Below, in pieces: positions 1 through 47,102 of a stretch of 64,000 bases of DNA. The first letter of the stretch is position 1. The number at the start of each line of letters is the position of its first letter. The DNA comes from a virus (lineage: Duplodnaviria > Caudoviricetes). The position numbers and the translations under genes are program-made. Location: the IMG/VR virus record IMGVR_UViG_3300017987_005501; one strand, written 5' to 3'. Under the pieces are notes generated by a model, which saw only the letters and a program-made list of their open reading frames with translations, was not told where the DNA came from and did no database searches.

Positions 1-432
1 TTACAATTTTCTAAGATAGGCATTAGCGCGATCGAGGAAAACTTGCATCTCTTCCCTTAAAAGCTTTCGGGCAACTTCTTCCGGGACGAATCTCTTAATA
101 TCGTTCTCCCAGTCTGGCCAATCAACAATACCGTTTTCAAGGATTTCTCCACTAGTAAGCTTTGCTAAAAATCCCCGTACTTTTTTAGACTTCGATTTAT
201 AGGTAATTGATCCTAGGTCAGCCACTATATTAGCCGTTATCCCTGTTTCCTCATAGGTTTCCCGGATAGCAGCCTCTTGCTCTGTTTCGCCTTCTTCTAT
301 TTTTCCTTTAGGAATATAGTAAGGGCTTTTACGGTGGTAACCTCCAGACGGGTGGACAAGAAGAAATTCTCGGATTCCAAGGTTATTTACTCTAAAAACT
401 AACAAACCCGCACTTACTGGAATCTTTGCCAT
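1..432 (-). CDS. Nudix hydrolase
   Basis: Complete Nudix box PKGKIEEGETEQEAAIRETYEETG; GGAGG RBS upstream. Confidence 0.9.
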   Translation of the reverse strand: MAKIPVSAGLLVFRVNNLGIREFLLVHPSGGYHRKSPYYIPKGKIEEGETEQEAAIRETYEETGITANIVADLGSITYKSKSKKVRGFLAKLTSGEILENGIVDWPDWENDIKRFVPEEVARKLLREEMQVFLDRANAYLRKL

Positions 433-561
433 ATTTTTTCTCCTCCTTTATATTACAAGGGAAGGAGAAGGTCTTCTAGGAGTTTCGCATTTTTTGGAAT
501 AATTCTTTTGTATCATAATATATAGTAATCTGTTGTTCTTTCAAAAAAAGGAAACATAAAA

Positions 562-8369: not shown

Positions 8370-9713
8370 TTAATCCTCAGATATATAACAAGAATATTTC
8401 TCGGTATAAGCCATTCGGTCACGAGAAACTGCAGCACAGGACACGCTTAATAGATTATCAATTCCTAAAGTGATATCATATCTTCCGGCCTCTAACCCAG
8501 GAGGAATTCTAAACTTCCCTGATAGTTCAAAAGTTTCCCCTTCTTCAAGATATTGCGTCTCTTCGTTCCTATATCGAATTTGCCCGAACCAAAAACCGTC
8601 ATCCCTTCGGCTCCGAATTAAATACCATCCATGAAGAAAACTTAATAATTCTAAATCTGTGTTCACTCTATTTTCAATGTTTAATGTGAATTCTACCTCT
8701 TCCCCAACAACCATGTCGTTAAAATCTGCTTCAATTAAAACCTTTCCGTATGCTTCTTCCCTTGGGAAACAAATCATTGTTTTAAGCTCATAATACGTAG
8801 CATCTAGGAAAGGGGTAGAAAAAGACCTTGTTCCATAATAAAGTCCTCTTAGTGGAGGAGAAAAATTAATGGTTACCTGAAAAAGCCAAATCCCAGGATC
8901 CTTAAAAGCAGCTTTTTCTATAAAATGAGTCCAAGTTTCATTCGCCCTATAATAACGATATTGATGTATATTAGAGATTTCTGACGGAATTCTACTATAC
9001 GGACTTCTTCTCCTAACCGGAAAACCAAAAAGCTCTGGGATATATACTCTTGGTTCCGGGTCGCTGAACTTCTGATAATACTGTATATAATTTACTGAGG
9101 AGCTGTGATGCTCGGTTGCCCAGAAACCCCCATTCTCAGAAACGGTAGTATTTAACTCAATTAAGCATGGAACATTGCGAAGCCGAGAGGTATGCTCTGT
9201 TATTTCGGGAAAATCGAAAATAAGTTCAAATTCTCCTTCAATTGGCCGATGAATAACTTCTTGAATTTGGTCATTTATGTTTGGGATATTTACTAAAGCA
9301 CTAAGGGCCGAAAGTCTTACTAGAGAGTTCTGGTCTAAAAGCTTTGGTAATTCCCTTTCTAAGGTTTCCCTACAATTTAAAGGAATCCACCCTAAAGGAA
9401 CTAAAGCAGCTTGCAAACGCCAACGCTGTTCTAATTTTAAACTATAATATTGGGATTCCAAAAAAGGAATATCATCTTCTGTAACATATTCGGATAGTTC
9501 CTCCGTAGCTATATCTCGCTCTTCCTGAGTATCTGCATTCAGCTTTTTTAATAAATCAATTAGGTATAACCTTCTTAGCCTTTCGGGGGAAATTTCTTCC
9601 TCCTGTTGTTCTGCTACATTACATGGGGGGTCTTTTTGAAAGCTTTTCAATAGAGTTAAGTAAGAAAGGAAAAGGCAAACTATAAAGATAATAAAGAGTT
9701 GTAAAGGTTTCAT
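8370..9713 (-). CDS. Membrane-anchored protein with HEAT-like repeats and C-terminal Ig-like domain
   Basis: N-terminal TM; LIDLLKKLNADTQEERDIATEEL and VRLSALSAL HEAT-like helices; C-terminal beta sandwich with GRYDITLG. Confidence 0.65.
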   Translation of the reverse strand: MKPLQLFIIFIVCLFLSYLTLLKSFQKDPPCNVAEQQEEEISPERLRRLYLIDLLKKLNADTQEERDIATEELSEYVTEDDIPFLESQYYSLKLEQRWRLQAALVPLGWIPLNCRETLERELPKLLDQNSLVRLSALSALVNIPNINDQIQEVIHRPIEGEFELIFDFPEITEHTSRLRNVPCLIELNTTVSENGGFWATEHHSSSVNYIQYYQKFSDPEPRVYIPELFGFPVRRRSPYSRIPSEISNIHQYRYYRANETWTHFIEKAAFKDPGIWLFQVTINFSPPLRGLYYGTRSFSTPFLDATYYELKTMICFPREEAYGKVLIEADFNDMVVGEEVEFTLNIENRVNTDLELLSFLHGWYLIRSRRDDGFWFGQIRYRNEETQYLEEGETFELSGKFRIPPGLEAGRYDITLGIDNLLSVSCAAVSRDRMAYTEKYSCYISED

Positions 9714-9749
9714 CTTTCAAACGCTCCTTTTCTTTATAATACAAAAGGA

Positions 9750-9772
9750 AAGCCCCGGGTCCTCCGGGGCTT
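9750..9772 (-). terminator. Intrinsic terminator
   Basis: aagccccgg-gtcct-ccggggctt stem-loop downstream of the minus-strand Ig gene. Confidence 0.6.
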
Positions 9773-9858
9773 GTTGTTTTCATCCTTTTTTATGGTACCT
9801 ATTGTAGGTGAATCTGAGGTTTGTTAGTCCCGCCATCCAGGCGGACTCTTTCGGTGCC

Positions 9859-10950
9859 TCAGCCACCCGATATATCTCGAACCCCTAACCGCAGTATTCT
9901 TCCAGAGCCTGCGGCAAGAAGTTGATTTACAATGCTTAATCCCGAACTATTCAAATTTGTTGTTCGAGAGCCTGTAGGGCTATTACCCAGGGTAACCGTT
10001 ACAAGGGTGCCACCACTCCCGCTGGTAGGGCAAATTTCTGCCGCCGCTGATGTTGCAGCAGAACCCCCAGAAGGAGCATTATGTGTTGTCCGTGCAAAAG
10101 CAAAAGTAGTATCGGCTGAGATTAAACTAAAATCAATGCTAGCGGTAGTAACTGTAGTTCCTACCGGGACACTCGATAAATCAAATTCCCAATATCCAAC
10201 GTAGGTGTAGCTAACACAATGATTTCCATAGGTATCAATTGTTCCTACCGTAAAAGAGGAGGATGCAACAGTAATATAACCGCATTGTGTTGCGGTAATG
10301 TCCCAGTTACCCCCACCCCCGCCAGTAATTGCGATAGTTAAATTTTGAAGGTCCACCCCGGAAGCAGCATCACTAACGCGGAGAGTAAAACTACTATTCC
10401 CAGCAGTAGTGGGTGTTCCACTAATTCTCCCCGTTGTAGTATTAAGCGAAAGTCCAGGAGGCAAGCTTCCCGAGGTTATAGAAAAAGAATATGGGGTTGT
10501 CCCCCCTGTTACGCTTATAAATTGGCTATAAGCTTGCCCAACGGTCCCTCCAGGCAAGGATGTTGTATTAATTGTTAAAGGAGGAGGAGTTGTTGAGACG
10601 ACTATTGTGAGTGGCTGGGTGTCCGAATCTGAATTGTCATCTATGACTCGAATCGTAAATGTATAAGTCCCATTCGTAGTTGGGGTTCCACTTATAACCC
10701 CAGCTAAACTAAGGCTTAGTCCGGGAGGCAAACTTCCCGAAAGTAATGTAAAAGTATATGGGACACGGCCACCACTAACAGAAATACTGGCAGTGTAAAG
10801 GTTTCCACGTGTTGCCGCTGGCAAACTTGAAGTATTTATATTAAGTTGCTCGGCAGGAGGGGGAGAGGTCCCTCTTACTGCTTCTTTACACCCCAGGCAA
10901 CTAAAAACGAATAAGGCTGCGCATATGATCAAAAGCATGCGTACCCTCAT
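9859..10950 (-). CDS. Lipoprotein with two putative Ig (He_PIG-type) repeats
   Basis: Signal peptide ending SCLGC; two repeats IxTxSLP..GxxY...SxxGGxxPYxF....GSLPPGLSL...GxISGTPT. Confidence 0.85.
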   Translation of the reverse strand: MRVRMLLIICAALFVFSCLGCKEAVRGTSPPPAEQLNINTSSLPAATRGNLYTASISVSGGRVPYTFTLLSGSLPPGLSLSLAGVISGTPTTNGTYTFTIRVIDDNSDSDTQPLTIVVSTTPPPLTINTTSLPGGTVGQAYSQFISVTGGTTPYSFSITSGSLPPGLSLNTTTGRISGTPTTAGNSSFTLRVSDAASGVDLQNLTIAITGGGGGNWDITATQCGYITVASSSFTVGTIDTYGNHCVSYTYVGYWEFDLSSVPVGTTVTTASIDFSLISADTTFAFARTTHNAPSGGSAATSAAAEICPTSGSGGTLVTVTLGNSPTGSRTTNLNSSGLSIVNQLLAAGSGRILRLGVRDISGG

Positions 10951-11013
10951 GGGTTTTCCTCCGTATGTTTGAAATAGTAAGGGGCGTAGGGAAGACCGAA
11001 TTGAGCTTAAAAA

Positions 11014-11086
11014 TGGCGGATACTGGAATTGAACCAGTTTATCAGGTTTATGAGACCTGTGAGATAATCCACACCTCCCATCCGCG
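11014..11086 (-). tRNA. tRNA-Met(CAU), initiator-like but atypical
   Basis: Cloverleaf CGCGGAT / GAGG-TCTC / CAGGT-CTCATAA-ACCTG / ACTGG-TTCAATT-CCAGT; C1 unpaired, A11-U24; CCA not encoded. Confidence 0.75.
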
Positions 11087-11094
11087 ATATTTAG

Positions 11095-11210
11095 AGCGGG
11101 CGGCGGGAATTGAACCCGCGTGATCAGCTTCCATTGGGTCTAACTAAAAAGTAAAACTTTATAGCGAGGCACAAAGGAAGGCTGAAGCTTTACCACTAAG
11201 CTACGCCCGC
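11095..11210 (-). tRNA. tRNA-Gly(UCC) with 45-nt insert (11131-11175) in the anticodon loop
   Basis: GCGGGCG/CGCCCGC acceptor, U73, D arm GCTT-AGTGGTA-AAGC, T arm GCGGG-TTCAATT-CCCGC; removing the insert restores TCAGC-CTTCCAA-GCTGA and a 71-nt body. Confidence 0.85.
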
Positions 11211-11254
11211 AATTAATCTTTATGCTTATATTACTAAATTATTATAGGAAGAAA

Positions 11255-11491
11255 CTAGTTTTGCTTTCGATTCTTTTGCTTAAGCCAATTATCAACGGCA
11301 GCTTTCCAAGTCCCACCCGCTGCAATTGTTCCTAGGTCATCCCCCGCGTAAGACCAAACTTCCCACTGATGCTTAAGTGAGCTCCATGTTATAATATATT
11401 TTTCGTTAATATTCTCATAAGGACGATATCCATTGATATGGCCCTTAAACCAAAAACGCCAAGAAGTTCCTCTATAGGTTTTTCCTCCCAT
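11255..11491 (-). CDS. Hypothetical protein, Trp-rich
   Basis: 78 aa; AAGGAGG RBS. Confidence 0.65.
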   Translation of the reverse strand: MGGKTYRGTSWRFWFKGHINGYRPYENINEKYIITWSSLKHQWEVWSYAGDDLGTIAAGGTWKAAVDNWLKQKNRKQN

Positions 11492-11526
11492 CTCAAATTC
11501 CTCCTTATCTGATAATACGGGAGGAA

Positions 11527-11883
11527 TTAATCTTTTTTCTGGCGTTTTTTTAATTCTTTGACGACTTGTTCCCTAAACTTAGAAATAGATGAGTGTTGAA
11601 TATTTCCCCAACGAAAACCGGAACCGGTTAAATAGTTACGTATAATGAGAAGCTTTTTAGTGGTCGTTTTTGTAACAGGGCCTAACCACCTTCGAAGCTT
11701 TCGAACATTAGCTTCTTTATTCTCTGCCCAGGTTCCTTTTAATACTTCTCTCAGCTTTTGCCAAGATTTCATCTTGACAATTTCTTTCATGATATATTCG
11801 GTATCGCCAATCTTGTATTTTTTGACAGCGAGTTTTTGGATCTCGGACGAAAGAATATAAAGTTTTGAGATGATGTTCCGCAT
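11527..11883 (-). CDS. Basic hypothetical protein with shared-type N-terminus
   Basis: MRNIISKLYILSSEIQKLA; coupled to the upstream gene. Confidence 0.7.
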   Translation of the reverse strand: MRNIISKLYILSSEIQKLAVKKYKIGDTEYIMKEIVKMKSWQKLREVLKGTWAENKEANVRKLRRWLGPVTKTTTKKLLIIRNYLTGSGFRWGNIQHSSISKFREQVVKELKKRQKKD

Positions 11884-12549
11884 TTAAGCCATAGCTGGTA
11901 CTGCCTCAGCTCCCCCAGGTTGGTCCTCTCCAGCAATTTCTTGGATTTGCTCCCAAAGCTGCCCGAAGTCTTCAAAGTTCTTAAGATCGCTCCAGGATAT
12001 TTTCTTTGTTAATTTAAGAAGGTCTTCTTTTTTATTCGTTGTTCGCGTTATTTCTCCAAGATACCTTAATAGCTCAGAAAGTTTTTTCCCGGAAGCTAAC
12101 CCCAAAGATAGGAGCCAGAGGGCCATTTGCCCCGCTTTAAGGCTTAGGATACTTGCAAATTTCCCTACTGAATTCTGATTTTTATGTAAACCCAAAACCC
12201 AATCTTGAAGCCACCCTATTCCATATTTTCCTATAATTAAATTAAAAAAATGAAGGACCCACTTTAAGCCAAAACCCCCGGCTTCAAGTAAAAGGCCAAT
12301 AAGCCATTTTACCCCTTTTCCGATCCCTTTAAGAATATCCATGATACCAAACCCCAATTTCAGGGTTGAGGGAATTTCAAAAATTCCTTCATATGGAGTA
12401 TTATTAAAAGCTTCCTTAAAAATCGCGCATTTATAATAATAGTCAGCTTCTGAGAAACTGTTTTGGAGTAAAGATGCCTTAAACTGATTAACCACTGTGG
12501 TATTTTCTAAGTTTTGGGCTAGTTTCTCTATTTTAGTTGATATTTTCAT
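11884..12549 (-). CDS. Hypothetical protein with Gly-rich amphipathic helices
   Basis: MKISTKIEKLAQNL N-terminus; GFGIMDILKGIGKGVKWLIGLLL amphipathic segment. Confidence 0.7.
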   Translation of the reverse strand: MKISTKIEKLAQNLENTTVVNQFKASLLQNSFSEADYYYKCAIFKEAFNNTPYEGIFEIPSTLKLGFGIMDILKGIGKGVKWLIGLLLEAGGFGLKWVLHFFNLIIGKYGIGWLQDWVLGLHKNQNSVGKFASILSLKAGQMALWLLSLGLASGKKLSELLRYLGEITRTTNKKEDLLKLTKKISWSDLKNFEDFGQLWEQIQEIAGEDQPGGAEAVPAMA

Positions 12550-12560
12550 AGGATTTCCTT

Positions 12561-13337
12561 TTAGGCAGCTTCTGCCTTTGCGCCAACAGTTTCTATAAGA
12601 TTAATAGCCCCTTCGTCTTTTGAGGCAGCAACAGCTTTAGTTATAAACTCCGCAATAACTTCTTCTTTTACAATCCCTTTTTTCCTTATTATATCAAGCA
12701 ACTTTACACGTTCTTCTTGTGAAAGCTGTTCTACGTATTTTTGTAACCATCTTTTACCTTCAGGGCTAGAAAGTTTTTCGGCAATAAAAGCCGTAAAATC
12801 CTCTCCGAAAATAGTAAGGGCAGTTTCTAGGGCTTTGGGTTTTTCCATAATTTTCTGCCAATCCTGAATGGTTAACTTACTAATTCCTTCCCTGTCCACA
12901 ACGTATCCTAATTTTTCTAGAAAAGCACCTTGGAGATGCTCCGCCTCTCCCTGCAAAAAGTACCCGATACCAAAACCACTAAGCAAAGCAAGGATGCCTG
13001 GCAAAGTAACGAGAGCGGCTAAACCAGCAACTCCCCCCGAGCCGATAATAGCAGTCCCAATAACCGCCCCAACAGCAAAAGAAAGAATTGGGGCGCTTAA
13101 ACGAATTGCTATAGCTTGAACCCAGGACCACCCTTTTCTCAAAATCTTTTTGGTATTTTCCCAAAGGTCCCCAAGCCAACCAGCTTGCTTCATATAATAA
13201 GCTGCCCTATTAAGGAGAAAAGATCTCTGTTTATTGTTGGCTACTCTTATAGAGAAAGCGGCGTTTAATGTAGCATTAGCAAGTTTTTGGTAATATTTGA
13301 CTTTGGCGTCAATATTGTAATCTAGAACTAATTCCAT
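12561..13337 (-). CDS. Hypothetical protein with internal glycine-zipper TM hairpin
   Basis: ~45-aa hydrophobic Gly/Ala-rich stretch, no signal peptide. Confidence 0.7.
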   Translation of the reverse strand: MELVLDYNIDAKVKYYQKLANATLNAAFSIRVANNKQRSFLLNRAAYYMKQAGWLGDLWENTKKILRKGWSWVQAIAIRLSAPILSFAVGAVIGTAIIGSGGVAGLAALVTLPGILALLSGFGIGYFLQGEAEHLQGAFLEKLGYVVDREGISKLTIQDWQKIMEKPKALETALTIFGEDFTAFIAEKLSSPEGKRWLQKYVEQLSQEERVKLLDIIRKKGIVKEEVIAEFITKAVAASKDEGAINLIETVGAKAEAA

Positions 13338-13404
13338 GAAATTCTCCCAAAGACAGATTATCCTTTATAGATATTTGCCTATTAGTGAATTATTAAAAAA
13401 TATT

Positions 13405-13833
13405 TTAAGGGATTCCGAGGTAATTATACGAATACCGAGACTGGAAGTAAGGGGGATCTATTTTCTTCATACGAAATTTCATTCTTTCTTTATGCTCTTG
13501 CCGACAGTAAAAGAAGTTTACGAGCTCTACAAACTCTAAAAAAGAATCAAACCCTTCATTATAAAGGAGCTGCCCAATAAAGCGGATAACATGATTAGGC
13601 CCTGTTAATAAAGCTTCTAATTCAACCTCCTCCCCCTCTTCTTCTATCCAATCCCCATCAGTCCCACATTCTAGCTCAAAACAGGCAAGATCCACATCGC
13701 CGATGGGGTATAAAAGTTCGAAATAGGTATCTTGCCCGTATTTAGGGTAATCTGGATATTTTACTGAGAATTCATAATCGCCGTCGGGTCTTCTAACAAT
13801 AAAGAATTGAAGGTTAGTTTTCCGTTTCGCCAT
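13405..13833 (-). CDS. Hypothetical protein
   Basis: 142-aa acidic ORF overlapping the upstream gene; GAGG RBS. Confidence 0.6.
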   Translation of the reverse strand: MAKRKTNLQFFIVRRPDGDYEFSVKYPDYPKYGQDTYFELLYPIGDVDLACFELECGTDGDWIEEEGEEVELEALLTGPNHVIRFIGQLLYNEGFDSFLEFVELVNFFYCRQEHKERMKFRMKKIDPPYFQSRYSYNYLGIP

Positions 13834-14215
13834 CTGAAATATCCTCGTCTAAATCTTCTGAGGAACAATAAACATTCCAACATTTTCCGTATGCAATTGC
13901 CCATTCAGGGCCATGGTCTTCCGTTTCATACGGGGTAAACCATGTTAGAGCATGTGCCCACTCGTGAATTAAGATATGGATTGCGGCACCTTCAGCTTCG
14001 TCCTTATGAATTCTAACAACAAAACGCTTTGCTTTTTTATCATACTTACAAAAACCTGCGGTGTCAGGCTCCGAAATAGAAATTCTTCGAACTTCTACGG
14101 GGAATCTGGGAGGGAGTTCGTTTCTTAAATCGTATAAAATGGAGCGAAAACTTCCAAGTTTACTTGCTTTTTTTGTTTTCGTGACCTTATGTTCCCTTTT
14201 TCTTTTCTTTTTCAT
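13814..14215 (-). CDS. SprT-like HExxH zinc metalloprotease domain protein
   Basis: HILIHEWAHAL followed by DHGPEW. Confidence 0.75.
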   Translation of the reverse strand: MKKKRKREHKVTKTKKASKLGSFRSILYDLRNELPPRFPVEVRRISISEPDTAGFCKYDKKAKRFVVRIHKDEAEGAAIHILIHEWAHALTWFTPYETEDHGPEWAIAYGKCWNVYCSSEDLDEDISDGETEN

Positions 14216-14358
14216 TGAAAAACTCCTGTATATATAATATACTCATGGAATATTCCAGGGGTAAGGCAAAAGAGGGTTTGAAAAGATTTCCCTTAAAACT
14301 AAATCGCATATATCTAGTATTAGATAGGGAAGGAAAAAATTTTAGGGGAGTAACCAAA

Positions 14359-14904
14359 ATGGAACAAACTCAAGAAAAACAGTGGTACGCGATCTCTATT
14401 CATAAGTTTAGAGACAATTATCCAACATTTGAAAAAACAATCTTACAGGCTTATGCAGATAAAGTTGATGACGTAGTTATCCCTAAGATGGTAGAAACCG
14501 TCCATAATAAAGGGAAAAAAGAAGATGTTACGTCGAGAATGTTTGGAAATTATATTTTTATTCATGCCAATATGGATGTTTATCTAATCGACGCCCTTAA
14601 AGACACTACAGGGATTTCGATCGTCTATCCAATTACCCCATTAGATCCCGTAGAAATTGAACAATACCGGGAGGTTAAAGAAGTTAAAAGCGAAAGTGGG
14701 GAACTTTTAGGGGATGGAGAAATCGAGGAAGAAAACCTGGCTGAATTTTTTGATCTAAATGACCGAGTTTATCTCACTACGCTTGGCGTAGAAGGATTCG
14801 TTCAGGGAACAAAAGGTAATAAAGTTTTAGTCGAAGTAGATATTTTAGGAACGAACGTTGTGGAAGTAGATCCAGTCAACGTAGAAAAGTGTGCTGAAGA
14901 ATAA
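14359..14904 (+). CDS. NusG-family transcription elongation factor (NGN + KOW)
   Basis: QWYAI...VVIP...MFGNYIFIH NGN domain; FDLNDRVYL..VEGFV..VLVEVDILG KOW-like domain; start moved to 14359 (GGAG RBS). Confidence 0.8.
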   Translation: MEQTQEKQWYAISIHKFRDNYPTFEKTILQAYADKVDDVVIPKMVETVHNKGKKEDVTSRMFGNYIFIHANMDVYLIDALKDTTGISIVYPITPLDPVEIEQYREVKEVKSESGELLGDGEIEEENLAEFFDLNDRVYLTTLGVEGFVQGTKGNKVLVEVDILGTNVVEVDPVNVEKCAEE

Positions 14905-15094
14905 GGCAAAAAGAATCGCAATGATGCGGATCAACTCTGAGCTTTGTTCAAATTGTGGTCTATGTGTTGATTCATGCCCAATGGAAATCATTAAATTAGT
15001 TGATGGAAAATTCATTATTCCAGAAGACGATTGCACTGGGTGTAAAGCTTGTGCGGAAGAATGCCCTAACAAGGCAATCGAAGAAATAGACTAA
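14891..15094 (+). CDS. 2x[4Fe-4S] ferredoxin
   Basis: CSNCGLCVDSCP and CTGCKACAEECP; true start may be 14921 or 14924. Confidence 0.9.
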   Translation: MLKNKAKRIAMMRINSELCSNCGLCVDSCPMEIIKLVDGKFIIPEDDCTGCKACAEECPNKAIEEID

Positions 15095-15162
15095 ACGAAG
15101 TTCTTTAACAATTTGACCTATTTTAACTTGAACTTTTTCAAGCATAGGGAGTTATACTGTTT

Positions 15163-15511
15163 GGGGCTGAAAAGGGATCGACAGGTAAATAAGGGTTATG
15201 GTTGCGTGCCGCGGTTAGTCGGCTGGCCGCGTTAAAAGCCGACTCGTCAAAACAACTGACGAACCTGTTTACGCAATGGCTGCTTAAAGCCGTCGTCCTT
15301 GTAGAGTTTACTTAGGACCCTATAAAGGACGTTAATGCACTAAGTGGGAAGTCCGGGAAGTTACGGACCTCGGAGTAGGTTAGTTCCAAGTTCGCTCACA
15401 CGACACCGATTAACCAAAACGAGTACACCTTTAGAGGTGATAGTGAGCTACGCACGTAGAGACCATAGTCTAGATTTACACTGGAAGCGGGTTCAATTCC
15501 CGCCAGCTCCA
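15163..15511 (+). ncRNA. ssrA: tmRNA
   Basis: 5' GGGGCTG..GGATCGAC; 3' T arm GCGGGTTCAATTCCCGC and CAGCTCC-A pairing with a G.U wobble; internal tag reading frame; smpB 1.4 kb away. Confidence 0.95.
15258..15287 (+). other. tmRNA tag reading frame, (A)DEPVYAMAA
   Basis: AAAACAACT-GAC resume context, then GAC GAA CCT GTT TAC GCA ATG GCT GCT TAA; the resume codon is inferred. Confidence 0.75.
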
Positions 15512-15513
15512 CT

Positions 15514-15542
15514 AAAAAAGCCGCAGAAAATTGCGGCTTTTT
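15514..15542 (+). terminator. Terminator after tmRNA
   Basis: aaaaaagccgca-gaaaat-tgcggcttttt. Confidence 0.85.
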
Positions 15543-15556
15543 ATATCTTAAATACC

Positions 15557-15766
15557 ATGGATTCTGAAAAACAAGAAATAGAGATCAGGCGCATACCAGA
15601 GTTTCCCGAAAAACTTTATGAGCTTGAAATCATTTATAAAAACCTCAAAGGTGATATAAGCCTAACTTCTGGTTTTATTGAAGATGTCCCTGCATTTCTT
15701 CAGGTAATAGAAGAATTAGAAAAATGGGGATATGAAATTATTGCCTATAGTTTTGGAAAGCATTAG
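15557..15766 (+). CDS. Small hypothetical protein
   Basis: Start moved to ATG 15557, downstream of tmRNA and its terminator; 69 aa. Confidence 0.55.
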   Translation: MDSEKQEIEIRRIPEFPEKLYELEIIYKNLKGDISLTSGFIEDVPAFLQVIEELEKWGYEIIAYSFGKH

Positions 15767-16524
15767 TGAGGTTTGGGCCAAAAGTAACTAACCCAATCAT
15801 TTTCTTGCCCTCCTCTTTCCTCGTATAATCGGCTTTCTTGGGAAACTGGGACCCCTTCCCTACCAACCCAGTAAATTTCTTGGGGAGAAATTACTAAGAC
15901 ATTTCCATACCTGTTACCAAAAGTTCCGACATAAAGACCAGAACTAATTTGTGGTTTTCCAGAAACATAATTAATTCGTGGTCCTTCCGTTACAGTAAGG
16001 ATAAAAGCTTTCTCTGTAGGACTTGTAGGGAAAAGTTCTTGTGTTATTGTTTCCTTAAACTCCCGAGCTTTTTCCTCCGTTAAAAGTTGCTGCTCCTGAA
16101 TAGACCCAGCTTCCCAGCTCTCGTCTGCCTGCCCTGTTTGTTCTGTTGAGGATCCTCCCGGAAGGAGTTCACCAATTTTAAGCTCTCCTTTTTGATGTAA
16201 AACAATTAGAGCTAATGCAAAAAGAAGCAACGAAACGCCGAAAAGTTTTTTGAGAGAACCGGCAGCCCTCGCCGCAAATTGTTCTTGAAGTTCCTTTTCT
16301 AAAACCTTTTGCATTTCTTCTAAGGAACCGGCTGATTTTATTAACTCAGCAAATAACCAACGTAGTTTTTCTTCCGTAACGTCGGAAAAATCAATTTGGC
16401 CTATATCGAAAAATTTCTTCAAATAAGTTAAATTTTGGTTCGAAAAAATCGACTGTGGGTTTCGTATAAAAGATTGGAGTTTGAGGTCTGCTGCAAGTTT
16501 AAGTAGTTGTTTTGATAACTTCAT
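15763..16524 (-). CDS. Hypothetical protein with shared N-terminal motif and internal TM helix
   Basis: MKLSKQLLKLAADL; LFGVSLLLFALALIVL; AAGGAG RBS. Confidence 0.7.
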   Translation of the reverse strand: MKLSKQLLKLAADLKLQSFIRNPQSIFSNQNLTYLKKFFDIGQIDFSDVTEEKLRWLFAELIKSAGSLEEMQKVLEKELQEQFAARAAGSLKKLFGVSLLLFALALIVLHQKGELKIGELLPGGSSTEQTGQADESWEAGSIQEQQLLTEEKAREFKETITQELFPTSPTEKAFILTVTEGPRINYVSGKPQISSGLYVGTFGNRYGNVLVISPQEIYWVGREGVPVSQESRLYEERGGQENDWVSYFWPKPH

Positions 16525-16568
16525 CTTAAGGCTCCTTTTCTATAAAAAACAAGCGATAAATAGATTAT

Positions 16569-16913
16569 ATGCGTTTTTTTCGTTGCCAATTCAAAGAAAC
16601 AAAAAGAATTCTTCCCCCTAAATCTAGGAAGAATAACGATAAAACATATCAAGAGGATAAAGAAGATATAGTGTATCTTACCTGTGATTTTGGCACAGCC
16701 GTTGTGCTAGGGAACTTTTTGGGGAAATACCGGCACGAAAAAGGAAATAAATTTTACGTTTACGAGTTTGAAATTGATAAAAGAGACCCAAGGCTAACTA
16801 GAAGAACAAATGCAGAATTTTGGTATCAGGGAGAAATTACGCAGTTTAAGTTAGGGGTAAAAGAAGTAAAGTTTGATAAAACAGTACAAATTAAGGAAAT
16901 AATCCTTTTCTAA
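16569..16913 (+). CDS. Hypothetical protein
   Basis: 114-aa ORF; no clear RBS. Confidence 0.6.
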   Translation: MRFFRCQFKETKRILPPKSRKNNDKTYQEDKEDIVYLTCDFGTAVVLGNFLGKYRHEKGNKFYVYEFEIDKRDPRLTRRTNAEFWYQGEITQFKLGVKEVKFDKTVQIKEIILF

Positions 16914-16929
16914 ACTATATATAAATAAA

Positions 16930-17367
16930 ATGATGGCCATTAAAAATAAAAAAGCAACTAGGGATTATGAAATTTTAGAGGAAATTGAGGCAGGAATCGA
17001 ACTTCAGGGGTCAGAAGTTAAAAGTATTGCTGAAGGAGCCGCTTCTATTGGGGAAGCATTTATTGTTGTAAAAAAAGGGGAAGCCTGGCTACTTAAGTCT
17101 TATATTGCCCCCTATGAAAAAGGCACCCATTCTAACCATGACCCCTACCGAAAAAGAAGACTCCTACTTCATAAGAGGGAGATTCGTAATTTCGAACGGG
17201 AAAGGGAAATTAAAAAATTAACGATTATTCCTTTGAAATTATATTTTAATAACAAAGGAAAAGTTAAAGCCTTAATCGCTCTTGCTCGGGGGAAAAAGAA
17301 ATACGACAAGCGAGAAGATCTTAAAAACAAGGATGCCGAAAGAGAAATCAAAAAATTCAAACCATGA
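16930..17367 (+). CDS. smpB: SsrA-binding protein
   Basis: NKKA..DY.I.E..EAGI.L.GSEVKS, R.R.LLLHKREI and GKK.YDKRE motifs. Confidence 0.95.
   Translation: MMAIKNKKATRDYEILEEIEAGIELQGSEVKSIAEGAASIGEAFIVVKKGEAWLLKSYIAPYEKGTHSNHDPYRKRRLLLHKREIRNFEREREIKKLTIIPLKLYFNNKGKVKALIALARGKKKYDKREDLKNKDAEREIKKFKP

Positions 17368-36701: not shown

Positions 36702-47102
<10,401 letters not shown>

Follow-up and report, generated by a model that had tools for sequence, protein, structure and literature searches.

The window, by which we mean the whole 64-kb stretch of phage DNA analyzed here, carries a gene for tRNA-Gly(UCC) that is interrupted in its anticodon loop by a 45-nt hairpin. The interrupted gene is very probably real and selected. 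We consider it plausible, though short of probable, that the gene gives rise to a functional tRNA-Gly(UCC) and that the hairpin is a non-self-splicing intervening sequence, excised at C36/A37 by an RNase III-type enzyme and followed by sealing of the ends by an Rnl1-type ligase; both the excision and the enzymes are what we infer. According to the textbook, tRNA introns of bacteria are self-splicing group I introns, and tRNA splicing that depends on proteins is confined to archaea and eukaryotes. The locus may point to a tRNA splicing route in bacteria that is possibly undescribed, but in its most general form, the proposal that bacterial phages use a third, purely protein-based route in which RNase III is paired with a phage Rnl1-type ligase seems doubtful to us. 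If the proposal were true, large phages would use their RNA ligases for maturation besides repair, and the function of a tRNA would be conditional on processing. Together with four similar genes, the window locus represents a simpler kind of phage tRNA insert, a hairpin that follows a structural rule: its last two bases are paired to bases 35 and 36 of the anticodon, and the cuts needed to remove it are offset by 2 nt.

An interrupted tRNA-Gly(UCC) gene

The tRNA gene occupies positions 11095 to 11210 on the minus strand. Rfam model RF00005 matched this interval over its full length (model positions 1 to 71) with a score of 59.4 bits (E value of 3e-11; gathering score of 29), and 48 nt were placed in the anticodon loop where the model expects 3. 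The gene is 116 nt long, or 71 nt minus the insert, and CCA is not encoded. Its body is a cloverleaf with normal D and T loops and a variable loop of 4 nt, and the glycine identity elements read from the sequence are all present (G1-C72, C2-G71, G3-C70, U73, C35, and C36). The same set is the one recognized by GlyRS of Escherichia coli. The body shows no decay, and its score is as high as those of uninterrupted phage tRNAs. The anticodon stem UCAGC/GCUGA encloses CUUCC, 45 nt, and AA, such that 52 nt rather than 7 lie between the stem strands and the loop CUUCCAA is obtained only after removal of positions 11131 to 11175. ARAGORN, run in standard mode with bacterial defaults, missed the tRNA-Gly(UCC) at 11095 to 11210.

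The limits of the insert were set by an intron-free homologue. A tRNA-Gly on a 680-bp contig, which comes from another organism and another metagenome (run X6) and differs by 2 to 3 mismatches per half, aligned such that position 11130 was joined to position 11176, with exactly 45 nt skipped and zero positional ambiguity. Thus, the insert corresponds to positions 11131 to 11175 (minus strand) and lies between C36 and A37. The 5′ exon comprises tRNA positions 1 to 36 and ends in UCAGC-C-UUCC (positions 11176 to 11210, minus strand), and the 3′ exon, which is supported by the sequence and the Rfam match as well as by the homologue joint, comprises tRNA positions 37 to 73 and runs from AA-GCUGA to U73 (positions 11095 to 11130, minus strand). 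Identical copies of the locus were present in two independent assemblies, JGI 3300029258 and Logan SRR14699969. Among the sequencing runs listed for a 2.8-kb stretch and for the 301-nt tRNA region, none was an RNA run, a result that has no bearing on expression. An earlier note on this DNA had proposed both a glycine tRNA body and a 45-nt insert between positions 36 and 37, and both proposals held.

Several known kinds of insert were considered and rejected. A group I or group II intron was rejected on size, with 45 nt compared to a catalytic core of at least about 200 nt, and no intron family was matched in a permissive Rfam scan of positions 9000 to 17000. Small self-cleaving ribozymes (hammerhead, twister, pistol, hatchet, and HDV-like) were rejected because the same scan gave no match to them at an E value of 1 or less. 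A bulge-helix-bulge intron would have two 3-nt bulges separated by 4 bp, but only a 1-nt bulge of C32 and 1-by-1 mismatches were found; one splice site lies at a junction of helix and mismatch, and the other lies inside a helix. No splicing endonuclease (PF01974) was found in the window, in the approximately 40 kb upstream of it, or in G001, a phage with a similar gene that is described below. A Lak-type or tRNA-shaped insert was rejected, as there is neither a GGTTCRANTCC-like loop nor an NCCA end and the 3′ end of the insert is paired to the anticodon. Finally, a mobile repeat was rejected, as the insert has no second copy in the window and the G001 insert (L028) has no second copy in the complete G001 genome. 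We conclude, in agreement with the earlier note, that the insert has no self-splicing core and no canonical bulge-helix-bulge and that excision, if any, therefore needs proteins.

Genomic setting

The phage is huge and uncultured, and the longest contig bearing its genes is 283,534 bp. A tmRNA and smpB are found near the tRNA-Gly gene, and the host is therefore taken to be a bacterium. No blastn match to the phage was found among GenBank phages, the exact insert sequence was absent from IMG/VR, and no relatives were found for the neighboring 363-aa and 221-aa proteins. Approximately 30 nt upstream of the tRNA-Gly gene is a sigma-70-like promoter match (TCGAAA-18-TATAAT; positions 11241 to 11270, minus strand) that agrees with the consensus at 10 of 12 positions and is a consensus match only. 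A tRNA-Met(CAU) gene detected by ARAGORN (positions 11013 to 11087, minus strand) is located 7 nt downstream on the same strand, and the two tRNAs are probably cotranscribed. The tRNA-Met(CAU) had a low Rfam score of 35.2 bits, an odd D arm, and an apparent mismatch of C1 opposite C72, and it could be initiator-like or otherwise atypical.

GGA is the commonest glycine codon in the window (49 per 1,000 codons). The main consumer of GGA is a collagen-like gene of 3,466 aa (positions 36702 to 47102, minus strand), which contains 507 GGA codons, or 146 per 1,000. Because of this heavy demand, a tRNA that reads GGA and GGG would profit the genome, which argues against a dead gene.

The approximately 40 kb upstream of the window start belong to the same phage and make up a glycan modification (glycosylation/sulfation) module without RNA enzymes. 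The region was assembled by stepwise exact-protein look-ups (L105:10433-20432, L108:1-10000, L109:1-10000, L110:1-10000, and L111:10300-20297). The module encodes more than 10 glycosyltransferases, four sulfotransferases, an APS kinase, a DegT aminotransferase, and a 1,636-aa multidomain GT/TPR/methyltransferase protein, as well as a PAPS-reductase-family protein and a GTP_EFTU protein that together resemble a CysD/CysN pair. A set of genes for sulfate activation and sulfotransfer encoded by a phage is unusual.

Predicted fold of the precursor

The precursor was predicted to fold as a cloverleaf in which the anticodon arm continues into the insert. Above the 5-bp anticodon stem, C32 is bulged and U33-U34-C35-C36 pair with G-G-A37-A38 (UUCC/GGAA), followed by UUG/CAA and an inner AAAGU-UUU-ACUUU stem, and thus the hairpin described in the earlier note was recovered in the minimum free energy fold. 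The arms of the insert pair in the register i(+k) with i(−(k+2)), counted from the two ends of the insert, over 20 positions that comprise 15 pairs and 5 single mismatches, and the hairpin loop is 3 nt. The minimum free energy was −47.9 kcal/mol, which corresponded to a z score of −5.5 relative to dinucleotide shuffles of the whole RNA and of −2.8 when the insert alone was shuffled. The insert ends in CAAUGG, and its 3′-terminal GG pairs with C35 and C36, with the anticodon buried in a helix approximately 30 positions long. The four pairs between anticodon and insert had probabilities of 0.98 to 1.0. Because the GG of the insert pairs with C35 and C36, the predicted precursor hides the anticodon, including the two bases that are read by GlyRS.

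Complete sequestration of the anticodon and of the C35 and C36 identity bases would also suit an unspliced RNA that is itself the product: a tRNA look-alike with a masked anticodon that acts, for example, as a regulator or that diverts anticodon nucleases or other tRNA-binding defense proteins as a decoy or sponge. Phage tRNAs are known to counter defenses that target tRNAs (PMC10264068). A decoy, however, would have no need for a perfect acceptor stem identity set or for cut sites placed such that a loop of exactly 7 nt is regained. The demand for GGA codons suggests decoding, and none of the known anticodon nucleases is linked to tRNA-Gly(UCC). We consider it very unlikely that the unspliced RNA is the product.

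Hairpin inserts in other tRNA-Gly(UCC) genes

To find similar genes, sequence collections were searched with a pattern made of the exon UCAGC-CUUCC, a gap of 20 to 50 nt, and AA-GCUGA plus a T arm, in which the bases of the insert were unspecified. The pattern was found on 1 contig in IMG/VR (L003) and on 24 contigs in JGI metagenomes. The JGI matches mostly had discriminator A73 and inserts that started with A and ended in GAAGA or GAAGC; judged by sequence features, the A73 matches are archaeal genes with a bulge-helix-bulge in the 37/38 register. Archaeal-type tRNA-Gly(UCC) genes in L007, L008, L014, L026, and L027 combined an intron in the bulge-helix-bulge register with non-tRNA-like sequence upstream of the anticodon stem, and these may contain second introns or be split genes.

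Genes with an insert and the bacterial-type U73 were found in the exon-only searches in the window, L003, L019, and L021. In three of these four (the window, L019, and L021), the insert ends in GG and forms the UUCC/GGAA helix; by our own estimate, the chance that three of four would end in GG if the two bases were random is on the order of 1e-3. A second search, in which GG was required, added L028/L032/L037 and L163. L028/L032/L037 represent phage G001, the 167,201-bp genome of which is complete with terminal repeats, and L163 is a 20-kb contig that was binned in a Bacteroidales MAG and carries an L028-like tRNA. Besides L163, no such gene was found in 185,579 cellular species genomes. The L021 gene adjoins phage genes (dNMP kinase and PHROG families). 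We conclude that the same architecture, with insert sequences that are unrelated or diverged, is present in four further phage-type genes (L019, L021, L028/G001, and L163).

The pairing register was the same throughout. In each of the five hairpin genes, arm pairing adheres strictly to i(+k) with i(−(k+2)), C36 pairs with i(−2), and C35 pairs with i(−1), with pair probabilities of 0.97 to 1.0. Because of this register, each insert takes the form of a symmetric hairpin whose 3′ end overhangs by 2 nt and lies on the anticodon. The distal stem spans 20 positions in the window, 11 in L021, L028, and L163, and approximately 12 in L019, and on the tRNA side of the cuts, 7 bp and the stacked D stem together provide approximately 12 stacked pairs. 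No sequence motif at the 5′ cut site was shared across the five inserts.

L021, L028, and L163 have in common the termini UGA...UUGAGG, a G·G mismatch at k = 2, and the 11-position distal stem, and they differ in their stem interiors. Even so, 54 of 54 cells in the aligned stems were standard pairs and 4 pairs had compensatory changes, compared to 41 to 50% paired in slid controls, in which the partners were moved by 1 to 3 columns. Three sequences are a small sample, but on this comparison they show a helix that is maintained and not accidental, in a lineage other than that of the window phage. The window's own insert had no covariation support, and no diverged relative of the phage was found. 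The earlier note had advised a search of related phage tRNAs for the insert and for covariation; the design recurred in four like genes, and covariation was seen in L021, L028, and L163 but not for the window insert itself.

In related T4-like phages, the tRNA-Gly(UCC) is mostly uninterrupted, with the loop YUUCCAA, and therefore the inserts are sporadic. Sporadic occurrence favors the view that the gene is dead or dying, its anticodon loop having been hit by a small palindromic element, and that no working tRNA is made from it. Likewise, no machinery for introns of this kind is known from bacteria, and all copies of the window locus that were found are identical, which makes purifying selection unmeasurable. 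Nonetheless, we regard a dead gene as unlikely. The intact tRNA body and the need for GGA decoding argue against it, as do the compensatory stem changes in the second lineage and the fact that the two inserts compared with their surroundings, those of the window and of G001, are single copy in the window and in the complete G001 genome, respectively, and not multicopy repeats. Moreover, independent inserts occur at the same phosphodiester bond, and all of them complement C35 and C36.

The earlier note had also raised the possibility of another register, in which excision after U33 or U34 would place a UGG anticodon on a glycine body. Such a tRNA would be a recoding or misincorporating one. The arithmetic stood, as it works for the window, L019, L021, L028, and L163. 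In intron mode, ARAGORN called tRNA-Pro (tgg or agg) for the window, L021, and L028, with the window called as tRNA-Pro(tgg) i(34,45), and called tRNA-Gly(tcc) for L019. The proline reading itself is disfavored: the glycine identity set is complete, with U73 rather than the A73 and C1-G72 of bacterial proline identity, and intron-free homologues read CUUCCAA, with the joint at CUUCC|AA. Moreover, nothing in the fold gives the proline register a structural rationale, and it does not fit the conserved cut geometry. We conclude that excision in this register is extremely improbable. Because standard tRNA finders miss such genes or misassign their anticodons, analyses of phage tRNA repertoires and codon supply are biased.

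A candidate route of excision and sealing

We propose that, in the precursor, the anticodon stem is continued by the insert to form a single long helix, in which the anticodon would be masked. Two cuts, one after C36 and one after the last base of the insert, would restore the 7-nt loop CUUCCAA, and both would be made by a double-strand-specific enzyme of the RNase III type. The RNase III of the host would be the likeliest cutter, because no phage copy was found in the parts screened. The cuts would leave a 3′-OH on C36 and a 5′-phosphate on A37, and the nick between C36-OH and pA37 would be a substrate for a T4 Rnl1-like, ATP-dependent RNA ligase, which would seal it without the need for end healing. 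A ligase step would be required because a tRNA with a nick in the anticodon loop cannot decode until the nick is closed.

The candidacy of RNase III is based on geometry. In 5 of 5 genes, the required cut sites face each other across the helix and are offset such that 2-nt 3′ overhangs would result, which is a statement about geometry only. Products of RNase III have a 2-nt 3′ overhang, a 5′-phosphate, and a 3′-OH, and it is because the required cuts are staggered by 2 nt, the signature of RNase III, that we favor this enzyme. Consistent with an RNase III dimer, the helix is 11 or more positions long distally and has approximately 12 stacked pairs on the tRNA side, and the insert has the form of RNase III-type intervening sequences, that is, a hairpin that extends a native helix by approximately one turn or more on each side. 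Against RNase III, the helix contains a bulge and several mismatches. To our knowledge, the choice of site by RNase III is not predictable from sequence. The 2-nt stagger arises because the terminal GG pairs with CC, and the GG/CC pairing might have been selected for another reason, such as masking of the anticodon, in which case the stagger would be a by-product.

Two other cutters were considered and rejected. RNase P and RNase Z, cutting 5′ of N1 and 3′ of N73, respectively, would produce a 1-nt 3′ overhang rather than the 2-nt stagger with a paired tail, and they are possible for the NCCA-ending type of insert found in L003. RegB-like cutting at GG|AG was rejected, as the 3′ junction reads GG|AA and no such motif is found at the 5′ junctions.

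Candidate ligases were found in G001. The phage encodes a ligase of the T4 Rnl1 family (L051:382-1464; PF09511, 53 to 57 bits) and a 620-aa protein with two matches to the RNA ligase domain PF09414, and its complete genome contains no RtcB, RNase III, or splicing endonuclease. With a ligase present and these enzymes absent, the gene set suits a host nuclease combined with a phage ligase that needs 5′-phosphate and 3′-OH ends. Genes for Rnl1 and Rnl2 occur widely in large phages regardless of what their tRNAs look like, and the G001 ligase therefore lends weak support. For the window phage, the earlier note had advised looking for RtcB, an Rnl ligase, or an endonuclease, and that search came back empty: no RNA ligase, RtcB, or endonuclease was seen in the 64-kb window plus approximately 40 kb upstream (approximately 105 kb screened in all).

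Excision and joining might instead be performed by other enzymes, with an unrecognized endonuclease of phage or host leaving 2′,3′-cyclic phosphate and 5′-OH ends that are sealed by RtcB or by Pnkp and Rnl1. All evidence for a selected design applies equally to such enzymes, T4-like phages carry a heal-and-seal pathway for anticodon loop breaks, and most proteins encoded beside the tRNA-Gly gene belong to no known family. Neither RtcB nor a splicing endonuclease, however, is found in complete G001 or in the screened part of the window phage, the five inserts have no common motif at the 5′ cut site, and a strict 2-nt stagger would not be predicted by any single-strand-specific nuclease. We judge other enzymes to be rather unlikely and favor RNase III followed by an Rnl1-type ligase as the working model.

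Relation to known systems

In a literature search, the only published phage tRNA "introns" found were the "enigmatic" introns of Lak megaphage tRNAs (Devoto et al. 2019, PMC6784885, Table S6). The Lak inserts resemble the window insert in being short, ribozyme-less inserts in anticodon loops of huge-phage tRNAs, including a tRNA-Gly(UCC), and in being sporadic among relatives, with no Rfam match and no known splicing route. Four of the Lak inserts (phages A1 and A2), however, which were placed after position 36 or 37 by a predictor run in eukaryote mode (PMC6784885), are 79 to 114 nt long and contain T-arm-like or tRNA-like modules (GGTTCGAATCC motifs), whereas the window insert is a plain 45-nt hairpin at 36/37 that has no T loop or NCCA and pairs with the anticodon.

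Another type of phage insert consists of an acceptor-like minihelix, sometimes joined by a T arm, and has (N)CCA exactly at the 3′ splice site. Inserts of this type were found in Gly, Tyr-like, Arg-like, and Thr tRNAs (L003:25-130, 300-416, and 428-522, minus strand; L058:3403-3520, plus strand). They are 22 to 45 nt long, and the one in the L003 tRNA-Gly(UCC) is at the same site as the window insert. Unlike the hairpin inserts, they have a single-stranded (N)CCA end and do not pair with the anticodon (probabilities of 0 to 0.1), features that suggest RNase P-type recognition; the window insert has instead a 2-nt overhang that is paired in the predicted precursor. Neither the 2-nt stagger rule nor a series of tRNA-Gly(UCC) hairpins was found in the literature search. 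We conclude that the hairpin type is a variant of the little-known short phage tRNA inserts and is distinct from both the Lak and the tRNA-shaped kinds.

Hairpin intervening sequences are also excised by RNase III from 23S rRNA in several bacteria (PMC8708148). Like the tRNA insert, these are hairpin extensions of a native helix in a stable RNA and have no catalytic core, and the geometry of RNase III cutting is the geometry required in the phage tRNA. The rRNA sequences differ in being 100 to 200 nt long, and the rRNA fragments stay unligated and are held together by the ribosome.

The introns of archaeal and eukaryal tRNAs are likewise protein dependent and located in the anticodon loop, with the anticodon paired to the intron, and the archaeal tRNA-Gly(UCC) genes recovered in our search had inserts of 22 to 49 nt. 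The archaeal and eukaryal introns, however, are usually at 37/38 in tRNAs with A73 and have two 3-nt bulges separated by 4 bp, whereas the phage tRNA-Gly is interrupted at 36/37, has U73, forms a helix that is continuous but for the 1-nt bulge of C32, and occurs in a bacterial setting. Finally, in the repair of tRNA by T4 Pnkp and Rnl1, a break in the anticodon loop is sealed by a ligase of the Rnl1 type, a homologue of which is found in G001. In T4, damage inflicted on a mature tRNA is undone and no sequence is taken out, whereas the break proposed here would be a programmed step of maturation.

Other insert-bearing tRNAs and neighboring elements

When ARAGORN was run in intron mode on approximately 730 kb of loci, many false calls were obtained, mostly from adjacent tRNAs or class II arms. 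L058, which is tRNA shaped, and L100 were the only further insert-bearing tRNAs from that scan to be confirmed by Rfam. In phage G001, a 97-nt tRNA match (L050:544-640, plus strand; 40.7 bits) has approximately 25 extra nt in the anticodon region. G001 also encodes a GIY-YIG homing endonuclease (L050:8401-9048, plus strand) 154 nt upstream of its insert-bearing tRNA-Gly gene, and GIY-YIG homologues are scattered through the tRNA clusters of 53 IMG/VR contigs. Lastly, a match to OLE RNA (RF01071; 108 bits; model positions 282 to 595 of 616) was found in IMGVR_UViG_3300045988_174586 (L062:1921-2199, plus strand). The match is partial but strong, is located inside a tRNA cluster of a T4-like phage, and overlaps the tRNA at positions 1896 to 1968.
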